This document shows positions 1 to 28,318 of a stretch of DNA of 64,000 bases, one piece after another. The notes beneath the pieces are model-generated. The model was not told the DNA's origin and ran no database searches. It worked only from the letters and a program-made list of their open reading frames with translations. A program made the position numbers and the translations under genes. Origin of the DNA: a phage; sequence record PQ724393.1; one strand, 5' to 3'. Within the stretch, counting starts at the first letter, position 1, and the number at the start of each line of letters is the position of its first letter.

Positions 1-811
1 GCGAGCCCATAGGGAACTTAATATAAACTACATCATGGCGAGTACGCATCCATGTGCCTTTAATATAAGCCGAATCCAATGGATAAACAATACCACCATA
101 AACGGCATAAAGTCCTGAACGTTCAAAATCTCTGTAACCGGTATCAGTTACAGCATAGTAGTCTTCGAATTCAGGGAAATAATCAACTTCGGCCCCATCA
201 ACATCACCGAGTCCAATGAACGGTCGCATGATATAACGAACTTCAGTTTCAAACTTACGGAAATCTTCTTCATCAACAGGAACCGTGATTTCTATACCGG
301 TTTTGTCACCTGGATTCATAGGTTCAACGAAAGTAGGTTTAATCTGAGGTCCATCACCATCCATATAAGCTACATAACCGCGAACTTCACCATTATGCCA
401 CGAGGTAATATTAAACGTTTCGGTATAACTGAACGGAGATTTTGAACCAAGGCCAAAGCCACCGATGAAATCGTTAGAAGCTGTTTTGGATGATGCGAAA
501 TAAGAGTTATACAAACCTGTTTCGTTTTCATCACCACGAATTTGGAAATCACTCATGCCTGGCCCGAAGTCACGGCATACAAAACGAGGGTCCAGTTTAC
601 CAGGAACCTGTACTTTCCAACGTTCTTTATTACCATTCAGAATATGAGCATCAATCATATTGGTAATTAGTTCACGAACTACAGCACGCACCTTATTACT
701 ATAAAGGTCTGATGAAAGAATTTTAAAGACCTTAGGCGAGGCCTGGATAGTAAAGCCTGTGGACTTAGCGCCATTACCAATGATTTGTTCTTTTTCGGTT
801 TCAATAATCAT
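1..811 (-). CDS. rIIA: rIIA protein, N-terminal part (gene continues beyond window start)
   Basis: Own translation from ATG at 811..809: [60 protein letters not shown]... closely matches recalled T4 rIIA N-terminus; frame open to window edge. Confidence 0.8.
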
Positions 812-818
812 ATTTTTC

Positions 819-1022
819 TCAATTCAGGTTACGTTTAAAAAGGTCTGCTACTTCAAGGAGCTCGTCCTTAGTAGCGATGTCGTTGAGTATTTTATATCTG
901 ATTTCTTTAAAGCGTTCTTTAAAATCCTCAGCTGCATTGATATCAAAAAATCGTTGGATTAACCGGAATTCTTTATGGACGGCTTTATCGAACAAATCAA
1001 TATTCACTTTAAAGTTTGTCAT
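819..1022 (-). CDS. small protein, rIIA.1-like by position
   Basis: 67-aa ORF; SD GAGGTAG 7 nt upstream of ATG; sits between rIIA and gene 39 region. Confidence 0.5.
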
Positions 1023-1332
1023 TTTTAACTACCTCATGTTGAACATATTCTCTGGTAGAACCGAGTTCAGCCAGAATTCTTCTCATAGAACCCATTGTAC
1101 TTTTGTGCTCTCTGTGGCGATACAATATCTCCAGAACCTTTTCCTGGACAACAGGAGAGAGCGCCTGGTTATCTTTAATCTTTAAGGCAATAGATTTTAC
1201 AGCCTTAAGATATTCTAGCCCCTTACCGCTTGTAATCACTACTCCTTCATCTTTACAGTTACGAATAGCGGTTTCCATAAAGGATAAAGCCAGGTTGTCA
1301 GTGTTCACTATACTGTTATCTTGCATAATCAT
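1009..1332 (-). CDS. hypothetical protein (107 aa)
   Basis: Track ORF 1009..1359 starts at GTG inside promoter; in-frame ATG at 1332 has SD GAGGTGA. Confidence 0.5.
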   Translation of the reverse strand: MIMQDNSIVNTDNLALSFMETAIRNCKDEGVVITSGKGLEYLKAVKSIALKIKDNQALSPVVQEKVLEILYRHREHKSTMGSMRRILAELGSTREYVQHEVVKNDKL

Positions 1333-1345
1333 ATTCTCACCTCTA

Positions 1346-1379
1346 GATAATCCTATCACAGTTTTGTTATGTTGTAAAC
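1346..1379 (-). promoter_or_regulatory. putative early sigma70-type promoter
   Basis: Coding strand GTTTAC -35, ~17-nt spacer, weak -10 (TAGGAT); upstream of ORF 1009..1332. Confidence 0.4.
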
Positions 1380-1380
1380 C

Positions 1381-1403
1381 CCGAAAAGGGCCTTGCGGCC
1401 CTT
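1381..1403 (-). terminator. rho-independent terminator
   Basis: Minus strand GGGCCGCAAGGCCC stem-loop followed by T-run. Confidence 0.6.
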
Positions 1404-1405
1404 AA

Positions 1406-1558
1406 TTATTCAATTTTGTAGACTTGTCCTCGAACTTGATAAAATTCGCCTTCCCAGGTTTCTACCATAATGGTCACATACTCTGCGAACAAAGGTCTCT
1501 TCTCGGCCCAGAGATATCCAAATTCACCGGTGGCTAGCGTTATCCAGTACTTTCTCAT
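1406..1558 (-). CDS. hypothetical small protein (50 aa)
   Basis: Internal ATG of track ORF 1406..1693 preceded by AGGAGA; longer form overlaps gene 39 end; followed by hairpin terminator. Confidence 0.35.
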   Translation of the reverse strand: MRKYWITLATGEFGYLWAEKRPLFAEYVTIMVETWEGEFYQVRGQVYKIE

Positions 1559-1601
1559 AAAGTCTCCTAATTGTATGGCACTCATGTACCATACATATTT
1601 A

Positions 1602-20562: not shown

Positions 20563-21456
20563 TTAAAGGACCACGTCCTCATAACTTGGCATTTCGTGCC
20601 CAGAATGGATATGGGCACCGAAATAAATGAATTCAGCCAGACCAGGATGGAATACTAAACCTGGGTTCTCATGATAAATGATATGCGGTCTTGATTTCAG
20701 AATCTGATAATACTCAACCTTACTCGGTTTGAATTTAACAATCTCTACATCAGGACGATAGTCTTCACGCTTAAATGAATCATTAGGGTTGGTGATATAA
20801 AGACGAGCACCTTCAGCCGCAGCTTGGTCTACAACTCTTTCGAATTGATAGCACTTATCCGAAATACGGAATGGATGGAAAATACCATCAATTTTAATAG
20901 GCGCTAGACCTTCAGAGTAACGCTCAATTACTGCAGGATTAATTACCTTTTGGTCTACAAAAATCTTATCAGAGGATGCACCTCGTGACACCAGGACGTC
21001 TTTCTGGCATTGATTCAGGACTGTAGTATAAAGTGAACGTTCAACTGAAGCCACATCAATATCAATGAACTCGTCGATATAATAACGAGGAACTTCAGGG
21101 TCCATTGTGATATTAAAGTTGAATTGTACAGTATGAGCACCATCATAACCTGTGATATCGGTTACCAGTCCTGAGCAATCATAGTATTCGATTAGTGAAT
21201 CGACTACAAACTCATTTTCAGACCAGAAATGTTTACGGGTTTCATAAGCATTTTCTTTATACCAAAGTGGTACGAAATTCAGTTCTGGGAATAATTCAAT
21301 GCATTCTTTGATATCGCTCGAATTTCTAGGATAAGCCAGATAATCACCTGGACGAGCACGATTTAAATGGAGTTGAAAATTGCCGTCCTTAAGGACGGCA
21401 TATTCACCTGTTTCGTAACTACGCATACTGAAAATAGGAACGATAAACAAACTCAT
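20563..21456 (-). CDS. hypothetical protein (297 aa) in beta-glucosyltransferase slot
   Basis: No similarity to recalled T4 beta-gt; ATGA-coupled to gene 42 stop. Confidence 0.6.
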   Translation of the reverse strand: MSLFIVPIFSMRSYETGEYAVLKDGNFQLHLNRARPGDYLAYPRNSSDIKECIELFPELNFVPLWYKENAYETRKHFWSENEFVVDSLIEYYDCSGLVTDITGYDGAHTVQFNFNITMDPEVPRYYIDEFIDIDVASVERSLYTTVLNQCQKDVLVSRGASSDKIFVDQKVINPAVIERYSEGLAPIKIDGIFHPFRISDKCYQFERVVDQAAAEGARLYITNPNDSFKREDYRPDVEIVKFKPSKVEYYQILKSRPHIIYHENPGLVFHPGLAEFIYFGAHIHSGHEMPSYEDVVL

Positions 21457-22151
21457 TTCAGGAAACCTCGGACGTAGTCAAAATCACGTTCAAACACGTG
21501 TGCACTTACCATGGTGTGGGAATACGTACCTAAACCAACACCACACTGTTCAGCAATAAATGCCATCAGTTTACCCTGCAGATAGAAATCCAGCTGCATA
21601 ACAACAGCGCAGTTTTGTGAACGCATATGGGTGTGTGCATACAAACGCCCGTCACGAATATAATACGTTACCGAATCGGTGCAAGGGTATTCTAAGGATT
21701 CGTCAGAATCAAGGAGGGCTTGGTCTTGTTCTTGGAGAATCTGGAACACAACTCTTCGCGAGTTGGCCTTTTCTTTAAGCTCTTTAAGTAGGGCTGGGAG
21801 TTGGGCCGCAATTCGAGGTCCATAGAAAGTGTTGAAGTTTGCAGGCAATACGTCACTTTTCGGCTTATCAATGAACTTAGCAACATTAGGGTATTCCTTA
21901 AATGCTTCGGCAGCGTCAGTACCACCAGAAATCATAAATTTCCAAAAGGATTCGGCATATTCATAACTGATACGATTGATACGTGGGTCGGTGAATTTAT
22001 AGGTGCTGACATCCAGTACTTCTATAGAAGCAGAACCAATTTCATAACAACGTCCGATACGAGAATCAACTGCAAACTGTGGAGCTTCCAGGATTTCTTC
22101 GTTCATTTGTTTAAATGCATTTTCAAAACTAACAGCGGTAATGTGTTTCAT
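21453..22151 (-). CDS. 42: dCMP hydroxymethylase-like enzyme (thymidylate synthase fold), gp42 position
   Basis: 232 aa; EYPCTDSVTYYIRD...HMRSQN resembles T4 gp42 FMCTNTVQYLIRD...MRSND; divergent. Confidence 0.7.
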   Translation of the reverse strand: MKHITAVSFENAFKQMNEEILEAPQFAVDSRIGRCYEIGSASIEVLDVSTYKFTDPRINRISYEYAESFWKFMISGGTDAAEAFKEYPNVAKFIDKPKSDVLPANFNTFYGPRIAAQLPALLKELKEKANSRRVVFQILQEQDQALLDSDESLEYPCTDSVTYYIRDGRLYAHTHMRSQNCAVVMQLDFYLQGKLMAFIAEQCGVGLGTYSHTMVSAHVFERDFDYVRGFLK

Positions 22152-22684
22152 TTATTCACCTTATTTTCAATATATTCGTTCAGACGTTTTAATTCTACCA
22201 TATCAACATTAAGCAAATTATTATGGCCGTCATGATTTAAGATTTTAAACACGTTTTCAAAACATGTTTCGTATTGCTGGATAGTTAGGTTGAACTCATC
22301 TTTGGTTAATTTAATAAGGTCATCTTCGAAGTCTTCGTCTAATGGGTTGCGAGTTAAAATAACTTCGATAACGTTAAATTCAGATTTAAACCCTTTCCAA
22401 TCTTCCAGTTCTACATAAGGGTCCATTTCACCACGAAGGAATCCCGAGTAAACAATATTACTAGGATACCCACGGTCTAAGATGTAGACAAAATTAGGGT
22501 CTAAAAACTTATACAGAGTTTCAACTAAAGCCTTGTCATTATCAGTCCCTAATGAAATGCATTTGCCATTAATCTTTTTAGGGAAATCAATAAGACGATA
22601 TTTCTTATCAGATAAAAGTGATTCAATTAAAGTAGACTTCCCGGAATTATCCGGGCCGTCGATAACAATGATTTTTGGTTTCAC
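22148..22684 (-). CDS. P-loop kinase (thymidylate/dNMP-kinase-like)
   Basis: 178 aa; Walker A IIVIDGPDNSGKST, DRGY motif; GTG start overlapping upstream stop. Confidence 0.6.
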   Translation of the reverse strand: MKPKIIVIDGPDNSGKSTLIESLLSDKKYRLIDFPKKINGKCISLGTDNDKALVETLYKFLDPNFVYILDRGYPSNIVYSGFLRGEMDPYVELEDWKGFKSEFNVIEVILTRNPLDEDFEDDLIKLTKDEFNLTIQQYETCFENVFKILNHDGHNNLLNVDMVELKRLNEYIENKVNK

Positions 22685-23064
22685 GGATGATATGCCTTAT
22701 AACTATCAAGAGTTCCTTCACGAACCAATTCTTTAAAGTGGTCTGGACGGATTGCTCGGTCATCGATGATAAAAGTATAACTCGGCTTGTGTGTAAGCAA
22801 ATTGTGATATTTCAATCCAATTTTTTCAAGGTTCTTAACCAATGCAGGAACTACTTCAACCAAGATTCGACCTGGGCCACATGAAGTCATGCCACGGGCA
22901 GTGAATAATGTAATCTCGTACCCTTCATCATAAAGCTTATTAATCATGGACACCATTTCGGTGTCCGGTTTAAAGTTCTCATAATCACGGTCATGGTTCC
23001 AAATCGTGATTGTGTTATCGATATCAAAACATAAATGTGGCTTATTTTCTACTCGATGCGACAT
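22681..23064 (-). CDS. HAD-superfamily phosphatase
   Basis: 127 aa; motif I CFDIDNTIT (DxDxT); start reset to ATG 23064 (TAATG overlap). Confidence 0.6.
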   Translation of the reverse strand: MSHRVENKPHLCFDIDNTITIWNHDRDYENFKPDTEMVSMINKLYDEGYEITLFTARGMTSCGPGRILVEVVPALVKNLEKIGLKYHNLLTHKPSYTFIIDDRAIRPDHFKELVREGTLDSYKAYHP

Positions 23065-24737
23065 TAAATTTTCTTCCATTGTTTGTGGAGTTCAGTAGAA
23101 CCTGTAGGTTTATATTTTACACCAGTTTCCTGGTCAAGCAAAACCCACTTATCAGGACAACGAGTAATAATTTGAGCCGTGATAGGGTCACGAACTTCAT
23201 CGACAAATTCACCAGTAATAAGCTTACGCTTACGAGGATGCCGCTTCAGCAGCACACTCAGTTGGTACAAACCGTTATAATAAGCACCCAGAGCTTTCAG
23301 AGGGTTATTCTTAAAGTAACCTGCCAGAGCCATCCAAATAACAGCAATCCAGAGCTTGTGCTTAAATGTGCACATAGGAATATCGTCTAAAGGCATAACC
23401 TTTTCAATATCAACGAATACACGAGTTCCATTACGAGTTAATCCACCCCATAGAGGGTCTGAGTTAAATTTGTCATAGCCATCGATAGAATAAAGCACCT
23501 TAGCTTCATCATAAATCGCAGGGCCTTTAGAACTATTACCGAAATAACCACGTGGGTCGATGATTTTAATATCACCTTCGTCCGACAGCATAATATTACT
23601 GTAGTGCGGGTCGCCATGAATAAGTTGGTACGGCTCTTTATGTTCAGACAGAATTTCTAGTGCGTGGCGGAGAAGTTTTTCAGGGTCGCCTACTTTGAAA
23701 TCGTTAACATGGGTAATGCCTTGTGGAGCAAAGCCTTCAATCAATCCAGCAATAGAAGCATTACGAATAAGGACCTTGTCCAATACTTCTTTCTTAACAT
23801 CAGAATACCATTGCTCATCGGACGGATTATCGATAGTTCCACCAAATGAACGTAATGCACTAATGACCTTATAAACCATGAGGACTTTAGTTTCTTTAGA
23901 CATAAACCGGTAGGCATCTGCCATGGTGCGACCAAAGATACGTTCCATTTTAATGAATTCGCCTGGAGCAAAGTCTACAATGCTCGGAACAAATTCAGAA
24001 TCAATAGAATTATACCAATTGATTTCTTTAGATTGGATTTCTTTACCTAATTCGTTGGTAGGTACTTTAATAGCCAGATTCTCAGTGAACTCTAATTTAT
24101 TAAATTCACGGTTAATTTCAGAATCTTCATGGGCCCTAGCCAGTTTCAATTTGTCACCGACATCAACCACAAAGTCCAGCTTACGTTCAGTCAAATGGAC
24201 CATCGAATCCAGGTTGTCTGCAAGGTCTTCGCCATAATTAGAACGGTCGAAACCTGTCCAATTAGCCACCTGATACAAACCAACCACACCACCGCCAGTA
24301 CCAATTTCACGCAAGTACGGTTCTTCAAATGTAAAACGACAGTCGGTCCCATAGGTATAACAGTAGTCGTTATCCCACTCAACTTTATGACCTTCAGGAA
24401 TAATATCACACCAGTTAAACAAGACATTATGCCCGATGATATCTTCGGCAATGCAATCGATAGCATGAGCTGAACCGTTGGCCACATCTACGTTACGAAT
24501 AGTGAATTTAGGCTTATCACTGGTAATCATGTTAATGGATTTAATGTAACCCTTAACGAGGTCATTAAATTTGCTGTGAATAACCAGAATAATTTCATCT
24601 GATTGGTTACTATACAAATCATACAAATGTTTTAGTACTGTATGCTGTTTGTAGTTAACCAATACCTTCGGGATTTCGTTAGTAATTGGATACAACCGTG
24701 AGCCAAGACCCGCGCCTAAAATAACAACCTTTTTCAT
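23064..24737 (-). CDS. bifunctional sugar-1-phosphate nucleotidyltransferase / kinase
   Basis: 557 aa; N-terminus VVILGAGLGSRLYPIT (GxGxRL of RmlA/GlmU-type); C-terminus LIHGDPHYSNIMLSDEGDIKIIDPRGYF (HGD..N...D APH/choline-kinase-like); SD GAGGAA before ATG 24737. Confidence 0.7.
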   Translation of the reverse strand: MKKVVILGAGLGSRLYPITNEIPKVLVNYKQHTVLKHLYDLYSNQSDEIILVIHSKFNDLVKGYIKSINMITSDKPKFTIRNVDVANGSAHAIDCIAEDIIGHNVLFNWCDIIPEGHKVEWDNDYCYTYGTDCRFTFEEPYLREIGTGGGVVGLYQVANWTGFDRSNYGEDLADNLDSMVHLTERKLDFVVDVGDKLKLARAHEDSEINREFNKLEFTENLAIKVPTNELGKEIQSKEINWYNSIDSEFVPSIVDFAPGEFIKMERIFGRTMADAYRFMSKETKVLMVYKVISALRSFGGTIDNPSDEQWYSDVKKEVLDKVLIRNASIAGLIEGFAPQGITHVNDFKVGDPEKLLRHALEILSEHKEPYQLIHGDPHYSNIMLSDEGDIKIIDPRGYFGNSSKGPAIYDEAKVLYSIDGYDKFNSDPLWGGLTRNGTRVFVDIEKVMPLDDIPMCTFKHKLWIAVIWMALAGYFKNNPLKALGAYYNGLYQLSVLLKRHPRKRKLITGEFVDEVRDPITAQIITRCPDKWVLLDQETGVKYKPTGSTELHKQWKKI

Positions 24738-24797: not shown

Positions 24798-25298
24798 TTA
24801 AATCTTATCTTTACCGATTTCAATACACCGTTCTATTGCCGCCGGTACTTTGGTCTTGAGCTTATTGATTTGTTTCTTATAATCACGGGCTTTATCGAAG
24901 CTCTCGGTTTCGAGCATTTCGTAATAACGAGCCTCGTGGATGGAAATCTGTAGATTGATATGGTTTACGCACATCGCATACAGTTTCTGCTTTTTGTACA
25001 AATCATCTTGACGCTTCATTTCTGCCTGGTGTTTGGCTAGTACCGCTTCACGCTTAGACTCTTGTTCACGTTGGAATTCGATTTCCCTTTGAGCATATTT
25101 TGCACAGTTATTACCGCATTGATTATTAGCTCGGGTATACACAAGCCCAGAACCAGCACGGAATTTCATTTCACCGTCATATTGTTTCTGTTCAGCTGCG
25201 ATACGAGCTTTACCAACTTCATCAGCCGAAACTGCATCGCCATATTGGACCGCGCAACCTGATAGGAGCATACTCATTGCGATAATTAACTTTTTCAT
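24798..25298 (-). CDS. putative lipoprotein (166 aa)
   Basis: Signal peptide with lipobox LLSGC; SD AAGGGAA. Confidence 0.6.
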   Translation of the reverse strand: MKKLIIAMSMLLSGCAVQYGDAVSADEVGKARIAAEQKQYDGEMKFRAGSGLVYTRANNQCGNNCAKYAQREIEFQREQESKREAVLAKHQAEMKRQDDLYKKQKLYAMCVNHINLQISIHEARYYEMLETESFDKARDYKKQINKLKTKVPAAIERCIEIGKDKI

Positions 25299-25307
25299 GG
25301 AATTCCC

Positions 25308-25544
25308 TTACTGTTTAACAATAATGATTTGTGCATTTGATTTACGTTCAGCGACGATGGCCCAGATTAAAGCCACTACCCAACCAATCATCGTCCAACC
25401 CAACAGGAGGTTTAGGAAGAAAATTCCGACATTACTACGAGTGCCTCGCAGAAGAGCCAGAATCCATGGTAAAAAGTAACCGATGAACATAATAACCAGA
25501 GAACCGAATCCTAAAACACCAGCACTAACGATTAAAGCTTCCAT
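25308..25544 (-). CDS. two-TM membrane protein, Imm-like (superinfection immunity position)
   Basis: 78 aa, two hydrophobic helices; immediately before gene 43 as T4 imm; promoter and SD GAGGAAA. Confidence 0.55.
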   Translation of the reverse strand: MEALIVSAGVLGFGSLVIMFIGYFLPWILALLRGTRSNVGIFFLNLLLGWTMIGWVVALIWAIVAERKSNAQIIIVKQ

Positions 25545-25574
25545 TGTAATTTCCTCATGTAGTTGATAGGAAGG

Positions 25575-25604
25575 ATACTACCACGTTCCTTGTGGTATGT
25601 AAAC
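25575..25604 (-). promoter_or_regulatory. early promoter upstream of imm-like gene
   Basis: GTTTAC-18-TAGTAT. Confidence 0.5.
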
Positions 25605-25606
25605 AC

Positions 25607-28318
25607 TTAAAAGTCGAACATATCAAATAATGTTGCTTTTTTCTCGTAGTCGATTTTAGCAGACTCAGTAAAACCAGTCAGAGGCTTGATAAAGGTCTTT
25701 TGGAACAGTACGTTGTAGTCCATCCAACGGAGGACTTGGTCACGAATCTGAATCGGAAGTTCAATACCTGACGGCCATGCCATACAAGCTTCACCGAACG
25801 GGTTGCCTTCTTTAAGCGGCAGTACATATACCTTTTCACCATCAACGATACGAGGCATAGTCAAATCACCTGCAGAAGCACGCATGTAAGCTAAGCAACC
25901 TTTGATGTGGTACGGGCATTTAGAACCAGGGAATCCGCCTTCATTATATTTCTCGATGTTGTTAGCACTGGATACTGCTGCAATGCTTACATAGTTGAGT
26001 TCGTTAAATTCCTTATTAAACTGTTTGAAATATTCTTGCAAAGATGCCTCACCTTCCTGAAGCATACGACGGATACATTCCTTCAGAGCTTTCTGAACTG
26101 CTTTAGGTGTACTTGATTTCTGAGTTTCGAGGCCCATGATTTTCAAGTGTGGTTCGGCATAACGAGTACCTTCCATGTCCCAAACGTTCAGTGCATAACG
26201 TTTCTTACCTGTCCAGAATCCACCAAGACCTTTAGAACCAAGTGGAGGACCTGCGATAGCTTCTCGGTCCATGAACATCAAGTGCTGTTTGTTGTTCATG
26301 TACTCGCACATCTCACGGAAGCCTGCATCAATAGCCGGTTCCATACGTTCACGTGCAAATTTATCTAAGAAGTCAACCCAGTGGTTAGTATCACGGAATT
26401 TGTCTTCGCCTACTTTATTGATGATTGCATCAGCCTTAACATAAATGGAGTCAGTATCACCATAGAGCACGAACTTCTGGTTTTCAGTCTTGCACACACC
26501 ATTCAGGTATTCGTTAACCTTACGTTCAATCCATTGGAGGGCCATTTGACCAAACAGTGTGATTGCAGTTGCGTTCCTGAGGTCGTAATAACGGAACCAT
26601 ACGTTACCAAGTGCACCATAAAGGGAGTTGATAAGCAACTTACGGTTAATCTGAGCAGTCATACCTGCAACTTCGGTACGTTCAGCTCTGAACAACATTT
26701 CTCTTAAAGAAGGTGCTGACAGCGTTTTAATCTTGGCTTTGATTTCGTCAGAGAAGTCAAAACGATAATCGATATCCAGTGGACTATCAGCCGAGAGATT
26801 AGGATTTTCTAATGCTTCTTTAATTAACTCACCATTACGTTGAGCTGCAAGCATATAACCTTTATGTTCTTTACGTTGTAAGAACACCTTAGTGATTTCT
26901 GTAGGAATAACACCATCGCGGTCTTTATAGTACATCATGCCGTTAGGAGAGCAACTGTAGACGTCGCTAGGACGCGGAGCTGTTCCGGCAATATATTCAT
27001 GTATCGGTGCGTTAGCGAATGTCCCTGCGATGGTCTCTGGGCTTATATTCACTTGTCGAATGATACTCGGGTACAGAGATGTAAGGTCGAAACTCATTAC
27101 ATATTTGTAAGCGTTAGGAATCGGTTCCTTAACGAAAGCACCAGGATAAGGTTGAACCACGTGTGAACGAGCTTGTGGAATTACCTTGCCTTGTTCTTTA
27201 AGGCTATTAAAGATAATAGCGTCCCAAGTCTTAATTGGACTAAACACCGACTGAATCTGCATCTTGGCATAATAACCCATGTCCAAACTCAGAAGAATGA
27301 ACTGACGCTTCATATCAATCTGCACTACACGATATACGTCGATAATGTTATAGGAAATATATCGTTGGTGGTTCGTCTCACGTAACTTAGAGATTGGACC
27401 ATCATATTTCAACTTACCCACTTTCAATTCATATTCAGAAACATAATCCAGAGAATAAGAAGGCTGGTTGGTGAAGCTGAATTTTTTATAGAGGTCGATA
27501 TAATCCAGAACAGAGATACCGAACAATGTAATGATTTCACGAGCACCGTACATGTTCTCAATAACTTTAACACGAGTTTTACGATGTGGGCTTAATCGCT
27601 TAGCAGTGTTCTCACCGAACAGATTTTTCAGACGGTTATAAACGTACGGTACGTCAAACGACTCAACGTTCCATCCAGTCAAAATCACAGGAGTTTTCTG
27701 TTGCCAGAAATTCAAGTACTCAAGCATCATTTCTTCTTCAGAATTAAACGGAAGATAAACGATTTTGTCAATGATTTCCTGTGGAACTTCGTCACCACCT
27801 TCGTCTTGGAGTTTCTCAGCGATTTTAATCGACCACTCTTCAACAGTACCATAAGGCGAAACTAAAAGGTCGAATACATAGAATTTATCGTCAATCGAGT
27901 CGTAGTGGGTAATGGCATCGATAGGATGTTTAGCCTGAGCTGGTTCAGGGAATCCATCAGGAGATGTTACCTCGATGTCGAAGTTAGCAATACGAATCTT
28001 AGAAGAATCATATTTGATTTCTTTACGATAGGTATCAGACAAATAGGCTAATTTATAGTCGTCCATACCCAGGGCTTCGAGACCCATATCATCCATACGT
28101 TTCATCCATTGGGATGCATCACGCATAGAATCGAATTCTTTCTTAACACAACCCTTACCATAGATATCAATGTATTTTACGGCTTGCTCTGGGTTAGCAT
28201 GCATAAACATTGTGGGCTTGTATGGAACTTCACGACTACGTTCGTTACCATTTTTATCGATGTAACGTTCGAGAATATTATCACCGATTTGTTCGACTGT
28301 CAAATAGAATTCTTGCAT
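25607..28318 (-). CDS. 43: DNA polymerase gp43 (family B, with 3'-5' exonuclease)
   Basis: Start reset to MQEFYLTVEQ... (ATG 28318, SD AAAGGA); exo motif FDIEV; YGDTDS polymerase motif; strong similarity to recalled RB69/T4 gp43. Confidence 0.95.
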   Translation of the reverse strand: MQEFYLTVEQIGDNILERYIDKNGNERSREVPYKPTMFMHANPEQAVKYIDIYGKGCVKKEFDSMRDASQWMKRMDDMGLEALGMDDYKLAYLSDTYRKEIKYDSSKIRIANFDIEVTSPDGFPEPAQAKHPIDAITHYDSIDDKFYVFDLLVSPYGTVEEWSIKIAEKLQDEGGDEVPQEIIDKIVYLPFNSEEEMMLEYLNFWQQKTPVILTGWNVESFDVPYVYNRLKNLFGENTAKRLSPHRKTRVKVIENMYGAREIITLFGISVLDYIDLYKKFSFTNQPSYSLDYVSEYELKVGKLKYDGPISKLRETNHQRYISYNIIDVYRVVQIDMKRQFILLSLDMGYYAKMQIQSVFSPIKTWDAIIFNSLKEQGKVIPQARSHVVQPYPGAFVKEPIPNAYKYVMSFDLTSLYPSIIRQVNISPETIAGTFANAPIHEYIAGTAPRPSDVYSCSPNGMMYYKDRDGVIPTEITKVFLQRKEHKGYMLAAQRNGELIKEALENPNLSADSPLDIDYRFDFSDEIKAKIKTLSAPSLREMLFRAERTEVAGMTAQINRKLLINSLYGALGNVWFRYYDLRNATAITLFGQMALQWIERKVNEYLNGVCKTENQKFVLYGDTDSIYVKADAIINKVGEDKFRDTNHWVDFLDKFARERMEPAIDAGFREMCEYMNNKQHLMFMDREAIAGPPLGSKGLGGFWTGKKRYALNVWDMEGTRYAEPHLKIMGLETQKSSTPKAVQKALKECIRRMLQEGEASLQEYFKQFNKEFNELNYVSIAAVSSANNIEKYNEGGFPGSKCPYHIKGCLAYMRASAGDLTMPRIVDGEKVYVLPLKEGNPFGEACMAWPSGIELPIQIRDQVLRWMDYNVLFQKTFIKPLTGFTESAKIDYEKKATLFDMFDF

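Follow-up and report, generated by a model that had tools for sequence, protein, structure and literature searches.

The stretch of phage DNA analysed here (the window; 64,000 nucleotides at its full length) belongs to a Dhakavirus, i.e. a JS98/JS10-like T-even phage. In the interval between DNA polymerase and uvsX, at the gene-42 position, it carries an open reading frame for a 232-aa protein that lies within five closely packed genes on the same strand. The features of the locus are listed below; signature residues are numbered according to E. coli ThyA, as mapped from an alignment with ThyA and T4 gp42, and conservation was counted over 121 homologues, down to 49% identity.

13341-13862, minus strand: gp56-type dCTPase/dUTPase, supplying dCMP and removing dCTP (PF08761 dUTPase_2; CLB_P2 homologue annotated dCTPase)
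20563-21456, minus strand: putative DNA 5hoC arabinosyltransferase 1 (RB69 gp46:47-like), 297 aa (PHROG 3891, E=9e-158)
21453-22151, minus strand: very probable dCMP 5-hydroxylase, ATG start, 232 aa, thymidylate synthase (TS) fold; orthologue of HY126 AfhB and RB69 gp48
21588-21590, minus strand: codon of Asp188 (ThyA N177, T4 D179; N177D), the pyrimidine specificity residue (alignment; 121/121 homologues)
21612-21614, minus strand: codon of Asn180 (ThyA D169; D169N; alignment; 121/121 homologues)
21681-21683, minus strand: TGC codon of Cys157, the catalytic nucleophile (ThyA C146, T4 gp42 C148; alignment; 121/121 homologues)
21690-21692, minus strand: codon of Glu154 (ThyA L143; L143E; alignment; 121/121 homologues)
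21813-21866, minus strand: family-specific, almost invariant loop K96-R113, KPKSDVLPANFNTFYGPR (conservation counts)
22148-22684, minus strand: thymidylate-kinase-like P-loop nucleotide kinase (RB69 gp45-like), 178 aa (PHROG 761, E=5.5e-40)
22157-22162, minus strand: Shine-Dalgarno-like AAGGTG, 5 nt 5' of the hydroxylase ATG (direct sequence reading)
22681-23079, minus strand: HAD-family sugar phosphatase (HY126 AfhF/RB69 gp51-like), 132 aa (TIGR01689 capsule biosynthesis phosphatase, E=6e-15)
23064-24737, minus strand: AfhE-like enzyme with an N-terminal sugar-1-P nucleotidyltransferase and a C-terminal APH-type sugar kinase, 557 aa from the MKKVV start (PF00483, PF01636)

ATGA stop/start overlaps flank the 232-aa reading frame on both sides, with the stop of the kinase at 22148-22151 and with the start of the glycosyltransferase at 21453-21456, and translational coupling links it to the genes for the AfhE-like and AfhF-like enzymes, the kinase and the glycosyltransferase. 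This arrangement bears out an earlier first-pass annotation of the DNA, which had placed the gene inside a putative hypermodification cassette. Between 19 and 26 kb, scanned promoters and terminators were no more numerous than in shuffles.

The reading frame is a genuine gene whose product has a thymidylate synthase fold. Pfam PF00303 (Thymidylat_synt) matches the protein with E=3.6e-13 (49.7 bits against a cut-off of 24.3), over residues 116-229 only, and PHROG 160 'thymidylate synthase' does so with E=1.5e-40. An AF2 model, with a pLDDT of 87.7, was matched by Foldseek to TS-family structures with a probability of 1.00, the best being 9iqc (TM 0.96, rmsd 1.5 A) and 9iqu. The first-pass assignment to the TS-fold enzymes is confirmed.

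The catalytic cysteine context and the MRS..N/D region, both said earlier to be kept, were found as EYPCTDSVTYYIRD at residues 154-167 and as MRSQN at residues 176-180. The alignment with T4 gp42 and ThyA, which had been proposed as the check on specificity, places Asp188 at ThyA N177 and so points to a dCMP-specific enzyme, since Asp at this position selects cytosine. The view that an Asp/Asn residue sets dCMP versus dUMP therefore stands, but not the choice between hmC and hmU that was derived from it: the predicted product is 5-hydroxy-dCMP, and the protein is 80% identical to AfhB and gp48. Nor is the asparagine of the MRS..N/D region the specificity residue. Asn180 replaces ThyA Asp169, and the Asn of MRSQN is the cofactor-switch signature of the hydroxylase branch; D169N is diagnostic of 5hodCMP synthases and correctly predicted nine additional active enzymes, and an acidic residue at the ThyA-143 position is a signature of non-methylating TS homologues (PMC13326640). 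The loop K96-R113 has a pLDDT of 53-56 in the AF2 model. In the crystal structures of the HY126 homologue, 217 residues are resolved with dCMP only (9IQU) versus 234 with dCMP and FAD (9IQC), and it is tempting to regard the loop as a candidate cofactor lid.

Taken together, the product of 21453-22151 is very probably a flavin-/O2-dependent dCMP 5-hydroxylase (5-hydroxy-dCMP synthase), the Dhakavirus orthologue of HY126 AfhB and RB69 gp48. This analysis established the orthology, the signature residues, the fold, the gene context and the lack of a second gene-42-type enzyme; flavin binding and the use of O2 are predicted from the homologues. BLASTP identity is 80.1% to HY126 AfhB over the full length, 79.7% to RB69 gp48 and 70.6% to the Acinetobacter phage Maestro protein. 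Among PDB sequences, phmmer matched 9iqu_A and 9iqc_A over the full length with E=1e-125, compared with 5e-13 for MilA and 2.8e-4 for T4 gp42. The PDB titles read 'phage HY126 dCMP hydroxylase-AfhB with substrate dCMP' (9IQU) and 'Monooxygenase dependent on riboflavin with dCMP and FAD' (9IQC). He et al. 2026 is reportedly the primary paper on AfhB, and Mahler et al. 2025 is said to deal with arabinosyl-hydroxy-cytosine phages.

The homologues are well characterized: expression of RB69 gp48 and of gp80 from the Acinetobacter phage DLP3 in E. coli yielded 5hodC, of 243 Da (Lee et al., NAR 2026, PMC13326640), the hydroxyl oxygen comes from O2, as 18O2 labels the 5hodC product, and an FMN-like flavin co-purifies with the 5hodCMP synthase (PMC13326640). 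D169N, N177D and L143E, present in gp48 and gp80, all recur in the window protein, which thus unites the marks of the 5hodCMP synthase branch (TS fold, Cys157, D169N, N177D, an acidic residue at ThyA-143 and a close characterized relative) with the genomic association of the branch, namely a dCTPase, a dNMP kinase, NDP-sugar genes and a DNA glycosyltransferase. The branch itself has already been described (2025-2026), and the gene is a known feature that introduces no new principle. In the literature searched, no experimental data were found on the window protein or on any Dhakavirus DNA, nucleoside analysis included.

The neighbouring genes match a UDP-arabinose and arabinosyltransferase module. 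The glycosyltransferase, the HAD phosphatase and the AfhE-like enzyme are shared with the HY126 cluster; they are 66% (to XAN60474), 63% and 42.5% identical to their HY126 counterparts, respectively, and the AfhE-like enzyme is 43% identical to that of Maestro. By clade distribution, this last enzyme belongs to a divergent Dhaka/Marfa subtype. The 297-aa glycosyltransferase occupies the position of T4 beta-gt, and no similarity to T4 beta-gt was found; the role of arabinosyltransferase 1 was assigned by fold (PMC13326640 Table 1), and that of AfhF in the module is taken from the same source. The 178-aa kinase, with weak Pfam/NCBIfam kinase matches and 37.6% identity to its HY126 homologue, is encoded upstream of the hydroxylase in the window but downstream of the glycosyltransferase in HY126. 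A smaller difference lies in the annotated start of HY126 AfhB, which gives that protein, of the same length class and with the same signature residues, six extra N-terminal residues. In RB69, as in the window, the hydroxylase gene lies in the DNA polymerase-uvsX interval alongside UDP-arabinose genes.

The name 'thymidylate synthase', given by Pfam, NCBIfam and many GenBank records, invites the reading that the gene encodes an ordinary thymidylate synthase, or else an enzyme specific for dUMP that makes hmU or 5-hydroxy-dUMP. With ThyA and td the protein does share the fold, the catalytic Cys, the phosphate-binding arginines and an equivalent of Tyr94 (Tyr110, by alignment). Conversely, it lacks their Asn177, Asp169 and Leu143; it ends early, so that the C-terminal ~40 residues of ThyA, the folate-closing tail, are missing; and its scores against the NCBIfam TS equivalogs all fall far under the cut-offs (e.g. 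58 vs 174 bits and 39 vs 327 bits). JS98 moreover has a full-length td, 47% identical to E. coli ThyA. The signature residues, the sub-threshold equivalog scores and the separate JS98 td lead us to reject the ordinary thymidylate synthase, and we regard either form of this reading as next to impossible. The first-pass annotation had held that an ordinary ThyA together with a separate gene 42 elsewhere would overturn it; what was found is a protein that is not an ordinary ThyA and a phage type in which td is a separate gene. In the 64-kb window, tblastn with T4 gp42, ThyA and family members found no second TS-fold gene, and in JS98, where 95-170 kb searched by tblastn returned td only and 65-95 kb was checked by annotation, no T4-type gene 42 was found. 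A divergent, folate-dependent dCMP hydroxymethylase, i.e. a functional gene 42 making 5-hydroxymethyl-dCMP, is what older annotations assumed; several GenBank records carry the name 'deoxycytidylate 5-hydroxymethyltransferase', and Petrov et al. 2010 credited JS98 with a gene 42 allele. Indeed, T4 gp42 (PDB 1B5D/1B5E/6A9B) resembles the window protein in its TS fold, Cys nucleophile (Cys148), specificity Asp (Asp179), acidic ThyA-143 residue (Asp145), dCMP substrate and map position, and MilA likewise has the fold, the Cys and both acidic positions. The downstream logic of T4 is similar too, with a gp1 kinase, a gp56 dCTPase and post-replicative glycosylation. However, Asn180 stands where T4 gp42 (Asp171), ThyA and MilA keep Asp, and the folate-pocket residues Trp80/Trp83 of ThyA, the former kept as Trp82 in T4 gp42, correspond to Ala91/Ile94 in a weakly aligned, alignment-dependent region of the N-terminal half, which as a whole aligns only weakly to ThyA. 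Similarity of an orthologous kind is also missing: identity to T4 gp42 is 24.5-25% over 159 of 232 aa, with a phmmer score weaker than those to MilA and many ThyA proteins, as against 80% to enzymes yielding 5hodC and not 5hmdC. The earlier remark that the protein diverges from T4 more than its neighbours do is borne out by the 67% (UvsX), 65% (gp41), 61% (gp43) and 67% (gp44) identity of the latter. T4 gp42 adds CH2OH from methylene-THF, whereas the window enzyme is predicted to add OH by way of flavin and O2. MilA, a Streptomyces CMP 5-hydroxymethylase (PDB 5JNH, 5B6D), is the nearest solved structure outside the family (Foldseek TM 0.84) and is cytosine-specific with an Asp specificity residue, but it is ~25% identical, folate-dependent and partial to ribonucleotides, and its chains of 325 and 342 aa exceed the window protein by ~90-110 residues. 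Furthermore, the hmC-arabinose assignment of RB69 has since been corrected in the literature. On the strength of Asn180, the low identity and the phmmer score, the T4-type hydroxymethylase is rejected as the best reading, and we hold it to be very improbable.

If the protein is a dCMP 5-hydroxylase, as we prefer, the sugar placed on its product may be considered separately, and it is a less secure prediction than the hydroxylation, as the AfhE-like enzyme has no more than 42.5% identity to the characterized AfhE and no phage arabinose-5-phosphate isomerase is present. Dhakaviruses and Marfaviruses might decorate the 5-OH with a sugar other than arabinose, or with a different number of sugars, through a separate module subtype. 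Their AfhE-like enzyme is 42-46% identical to that of every studied phage, against 53% identity between the enzymes of HY126 and Maestro. HY126 further carries genes for an arabinose-5-P isomerase and a Peptidase_U32 protein, for which the window has no counterpart. A SIS-domain arabinose-5-P isomerase is missing from the module, as is, in Dhakavirus, a U32-family gene; neither of these, nor a second glycosyltransferase, was found in the window or in Dhakavirus loci. Mosigviruses encode their second arabinosyltransferase between rIIA and gp39 (in RB69, gp3 near rIIA), an interval in which no glycosyltransferase was found here. Against another sugar, the AfhE-like enzyme has the same domain architecture as AfhE, and the HAD phosphatase and glycosyltransferase are close to those of HY126. 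Arabinose-5-phosphate is available in E. coli from KdsD/GutQ, which also counts against it. Dhakaviruses are among the phages listed with the syntenic cluster and are grouped with the arabinosylation clusters (PMC13326640), and on balance we judge a different sugar or sugar number to be very improbable. A broader proposal, which we consider improbable, is that Dhakaviruses, Marfaviruses and some Providencia phages share a second subtype of 5-hydroxycytosine glycosylation module, with an AfhE-like enzyme ~43% identical to the studied ones, no isomerase, one glycosyltransferase and, in Dhakavirus, no U32 gene, and with a 5-O-glycosyl-cytosine that may differ in sugar identity or chain length from the known arabinosylated forms. 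Even then, the hydroxylase would be an ordinary member of its family.

A plausible reaction course for the dCMP 5-hydroxylase can be drawn from its homologues, for which crystal structures with dCMP and FAD exist. The phosphate of dCMP would be held by Arg31, Arg132/Arg133, Arg177 and Ser178, with Arg132/Arg133 probably contributed by the partner subunit of a dimer, and Asp188 would read the N3/N4 face of the cytosine. Attack of Cys157 on C6, as throughout the TS-family enzymes, would render C5 nucleophilic. This carbon would then attack an oxygen delivered by reduced flavin and O2, presumably as a flavin hydroperoxide, in place of methylene-tetrahydrofolate, the flavin occupying the site where TS binds folate. 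Elimination of Cys157 would release 5-hydroxy-dCMP, which phage gp1 dNMP kinase and host NDP kinase could convert to the triphosphate, with gp56 dCTPase excluding dCTP from the pool; the gene complement of JS98 includes gene 1, together with td, frd, cd, alc, denA and denB. During synthesis by the DNA polymerase, 5-hydroxy-dC would replace dC. After replication, the adjacent 297-aa glycosyltransferase may join a sugar to the 5-OH by an ether bond; arabinofuranose is the likeliest candidate, with UDP-Ara as a donor that the AfhE-like and AfhF-like neighbours would make. For Dhakavirus, we infer the chemical steps, the flavin-hydroperoxide intermediate, and the identity and number of the sugars.

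The assignment matters chiefly for the annotation of this gene, which GenBank records call either a thymidylate synthase or a dCMP hydroxymethylase, or leave as a hypothetical protein. In the hydroxylase branch, the sugar decoration of phage DNA is anchored on a hydroxyl put on dCMP, and not on a hydroxymethyl. DNA of JS98-type phages is accordingly expected to contain 5-O-glycosyl-5-hydroxycytosine, not hydroxymethylcytosine. This changed expectation bears on the choice of restriction, Type IV and CRISPR systems that should be active against JS98-type phages, which have served as therapy candidates.

We predict, from sequence comparison and a structural model, that the TS-fold (thymidylate synthase) ORF at 21453..22151, 232 codons on the minus strand, encodes a dCMP-specific hydroxylase of the modification cassette rather than a hydroxymethylase. 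Its coordinates are identical to those of the first-pass annotation; it starts with ATG, and a Shine-Dalgarno-like AAGGTG is read 5 nt upstream. The window is from a Dhakavirus, a T-even phage like JS98 and JS10, the 4.5-kb region around the gene being 96% identical to fDHCT2, CLB_P2, JS10 and JS98. In a PDB sequence search, 9IQU/9IQC/9IR2 were the best matches over the full length (E=1e-125), followed by Streptomyces MilA (5e-13), with T4 dCMP hydroxymethylase reaching only E=2.8e-4. An AlphaFold2 model (59 homologues as input, pLDDT 87.7) matched 9IQC, ‘Monooxygenase dependent on riboflavin with dCMP and FAD’ (TM 0.96, 1.5 A), then 9IQU, ‘phage HY126 dCMP hydroxylase-AfhB with substrate dCMP’, and later MilA (TM 0.84) and ordinary thymidylate synthases. 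Identity to the product is 80.1% for HY126 AfhB, 79.7% for RB69 gp48, 70.6% for the Acinetobacter phage Maestro homologue and 29.6% for that of Rhizobium phage RHph_I46.

Hydroxylases of this family have been described before, and for Dhakavirus the feature has been predicted in print. RB69 gp48 and DLP3 gp80 convert dCMP to 5-hydroxy-dCMP, with O2 as the oxygen source by 18O2 labelling, and an FMN-like flavin co-purifies with these 5hodCMP synthases (Lee et al., NAR 2026, PMC13326640). The same paper gives ThyA Asp169 to Asn, alongside N177D and L143E, as the diagnostic signature, reports nine further active enzymes correctly predicted from D169N, and names Dhakaviruses among carriers of the syntenic cluster. 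As cited there, He et al. (Nat Chem Biol 2026) describe an HY126 crystal structure with flavin and in vitro reconstitution. RB69 was formerly credited with arabosyl-hydroxymethyl-cytosine, which is today considered an error. GenBank names for the same gene in close relatives conflict (‘hypothetical protein’, ‘thymidylate synthase’, ‘putative thymidylate synthase’, ‘dCMP hydroxymethylase’, ‘deoxycytidylate 5-hydroxymethyltransferase’), and ‘hydroxylase’ is the gene name in none of the records examined.

The window protein was aligned with HY126, RB69, Maestro, RHph_I46, T4 gp42 and E. coli ThyA; its T4 numbering recovers the literature Cys148, Asp179 and Glu60, so that the alignment is validated at these residues.

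Residues of the window protein and their ThyA equivalents
Tyr110 (Y94), kept
Arg132/Arg133 (R126/R127), phosphate binding
Glu154 (L143), acidic, like non-methylating homologues
Cys157 (C146), catalytic nucleophile
Arg177/Ser178 (R166/S167), phosphate binding
Asn180 (D169), hydroxylase signature
Asp188 (N177), cytosine specificity
His218 (H207), kept

The catalytic Cys context and MRS..N/D motif noted in the first-pass annotation are indeed present, as EYPCTDSVTYYIRD (residues 154-167, with Cys157) and MRSQN (residues 176-180), and Glu154, Cys157, Arg177, Ser178, Asn180 and Asp188 are invariant in 121 homologues, at identities down to 49%. That annotation also looked to a specificity residue to decide between hmC and hmU. 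Asp188 occupies this position, and dCMP is therefore the expected substrate; the Asn of MRSQN, however, lies at a different position, where T4 gp42, ThyA and MilA (MRAND) have Asp, and marks the switch from folate to flavin as cofactor. The first-pass interpretation is partly supported: a TS-fold, dCMP-specific enzyme is retained, whereas the proposed hydroxymethylase gives way, since 80.1% identity to AfhB and the Asn180 signature point to a hydroxylase. ThyA folate-pocket residues Trp80 and Trp83 become Ala91 and Ile94 in a weakly aligned region, and the ThyA C-terminal tail is missing. For the Glu58 equivalent, MAFFT and HMMER differ by two residues (Phe69 versus Glu67); Glu67 is found in 87 of 121 relatives. 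Loop K96-R113 (KPKSDVLPANFNTFYGPR; window 21813..21866, minus strand) is family-specific and nearly invariant in the 121 homologues, with pLDDT of 53-56 across residues 96-113. The structure with dCMP alone (9IQU) resolves 217 residues, 17 fewer than the 234 of the dCMP and FAD form (9IQC). We put the loop forward as a candidate mobile cofactor lid, covering the flavin.

An ordinary thymidylate synthase is the reading to which family-level matches might lead: PF00303 (Thymidylat_synt) covers the C-terminal half (residues 116-229, E=3.6e-13, Pfam), and the PHROGs match is ‘thymidylate synthase’ (E=1.5e-40). We reject it on scores far under the cut-offs of all NCBIfam thymidylate-synthase equivalog models, on Asp188, Asn180 and Glu154, on the missing tail and on the separate td of JS98. 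The window holds one TS-fold locus, which occupies the gene-42 position in the DNA polymerase-uvsX interval. Elsewhere in the JS98 genome lie a canonical td, whose product shares 47% identity with E. coli ThyA, the dNMP kinase gene 1, and frd, cd, alc, denA and denB; a T4-type gene 42 was not found (tblastn, 95-170 kb; annotation, 65-95 kb). An ordinary ThyA beside a separate gene 42, the finding that would have overturned the initial reading, therefore did not turn up in the window or in these parts of JS98. The divergence from T4 gp42 noted at the outset is borne out, at 25% identity over 159 residues, against 67% for UvsX, 65% for gp41, 61% for gp43 and 67% for gp44 with their T4 counterparts.

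The predicted hydroxylase gene does lie inside a hypermodification cassette, as first proposed, and is translationally coupled to both neighbours through ATGA overlaps.

Cassette and associated genes (identity to HY126 counterpart)
23064..24737, minus, AfhE-like nucleotidyltransferase + kinase (42.5%)
22681..23079, minus, HAD phosphatase, AfhF-like (63%)
22148..22684, minus, thymidylate-kinase-like kinase (37.6%)
21453..22151, minus, predicted hydroxylase (80.1%)
20563..21456, minus, putative arabinosyltransferase 1, 297 aa (66%)
13341..13862, gp56-type dCTPase

Although the 297-aa gene takes the place of beta-gt, pairwise comparison of its product with T4 beta-glucosyltransferase showed no similarity. 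In the window and in Klebsiella phage Marfa, the kinase gene lies upstream of the hydroxylase; in RB69 and HY126 its place is downstream of the glycosyltransferase. RB69 already has an enzyme that phosphorylates 5hodCMP, its gp1-type dNMP kinase.

In the mechanism that we propose, an arginine cluster would hold dCMP, Asp188 would read the base and Cys157 would attack C6. In the former folate pocket, O2 would react with reduced flavin, probably through a flavin-hydroperoxide, C5 would be hydroxylated, and elimination of Cys157 would free 5-hydroxy-dCMP. The Cys157 addition and elimination would be standard TS-superfamily chemistry, backed by the conserved residues; the C5 hydroxylation is proposed from experiments on homologues. 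In this phage, gp1 and host NDP kinase would then make the triphosphate, gp56 would remove dCTP, DNA polymerase would build in the modified nucleotide, and the adjacent glycosyltransferase would attach a sugar, using the NDP-sugar that the AfhE/AfhF-like enzymes produce.

The Dhakavirus sugar module is a distinct subtype, its AfhE-like protein forming a separate clade among the genes compared (window 23064..24737, minus strand; HY126, L001:5414-7102; a further relative, L005:3945-5618; Marfa, L011:5001-6665). Identity of at least 95% occurs only inside Dhakavirus, with 80% in Marfavirus, 71.5% in one Providencia phage (PSTCR6) and 42-46% to every experimentally studied phage, for which arabinosyl-5-hydroxycytosine was determined; HY126 and Maestro homologues share 53% across genera. 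The clade may reflect a different substrate or merely a long branch. RB69 (L004:10964-11599) and HY126 (L001:4597-5232) encode an isomerase in the stretch that separates gene 43 from the AfhE gene, whereas in Marfa the AfhE-like gene directly follows gene 43. The SIS-domain arabinose-5-phosphate isomerase is absent from the Dhaka/Marfa-type cluster, including window 24798..25607, and tblastn against CLB_P2 40.6-85.2 kb and JS98 95-170 kb gave no match; arabinose-5-phosphate is presumably supplied by host KdsD/GutQ. Mosigviruses encode a second DNA arabinosyltransferase between rIIA and gene 39, but this interval (rIIA/rIIA.1-gene 39; window 1..1600 and, in a relative, L007:1-1232) holds no glycosyltransferase and only small ORFs (<=116 aa), which suggests that Dhakavirus has one such enzyme. 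Most simply, the pathway would be a minimal one that adds a single arabinose, with host-derived arabinose-5-phosphate; a sugar other than arabinose is possible. The part of the literature searched contained no nucleoside analysis of any Dhakavirus.

A Peptidase_U32 (PF01136) gene adjoins the hydroxylase in HY126 (L001:7543-8703), Marfa (L011:7787-8947) and RB69 (gp50, L004:7493-8662), but is not in the window or the Dhakavirus loci examined, an absence which suggests that the core pathway can do without it. The U32 family also includes RlhA and TrhP, which are RNA pyrimidine-5-hydroxylases. In the position of the relatives’ isomerase, the window has a 166-aa ORF (24798..25298, minus strand) with no Pfam family over threshold and a lipoprotein-like N-terminus (MKKLIIAMSMLLSGC...). 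In Erwinia and Proteus relatives, a ‘chorismate mutase’ is annotated beside the TS-like gene.
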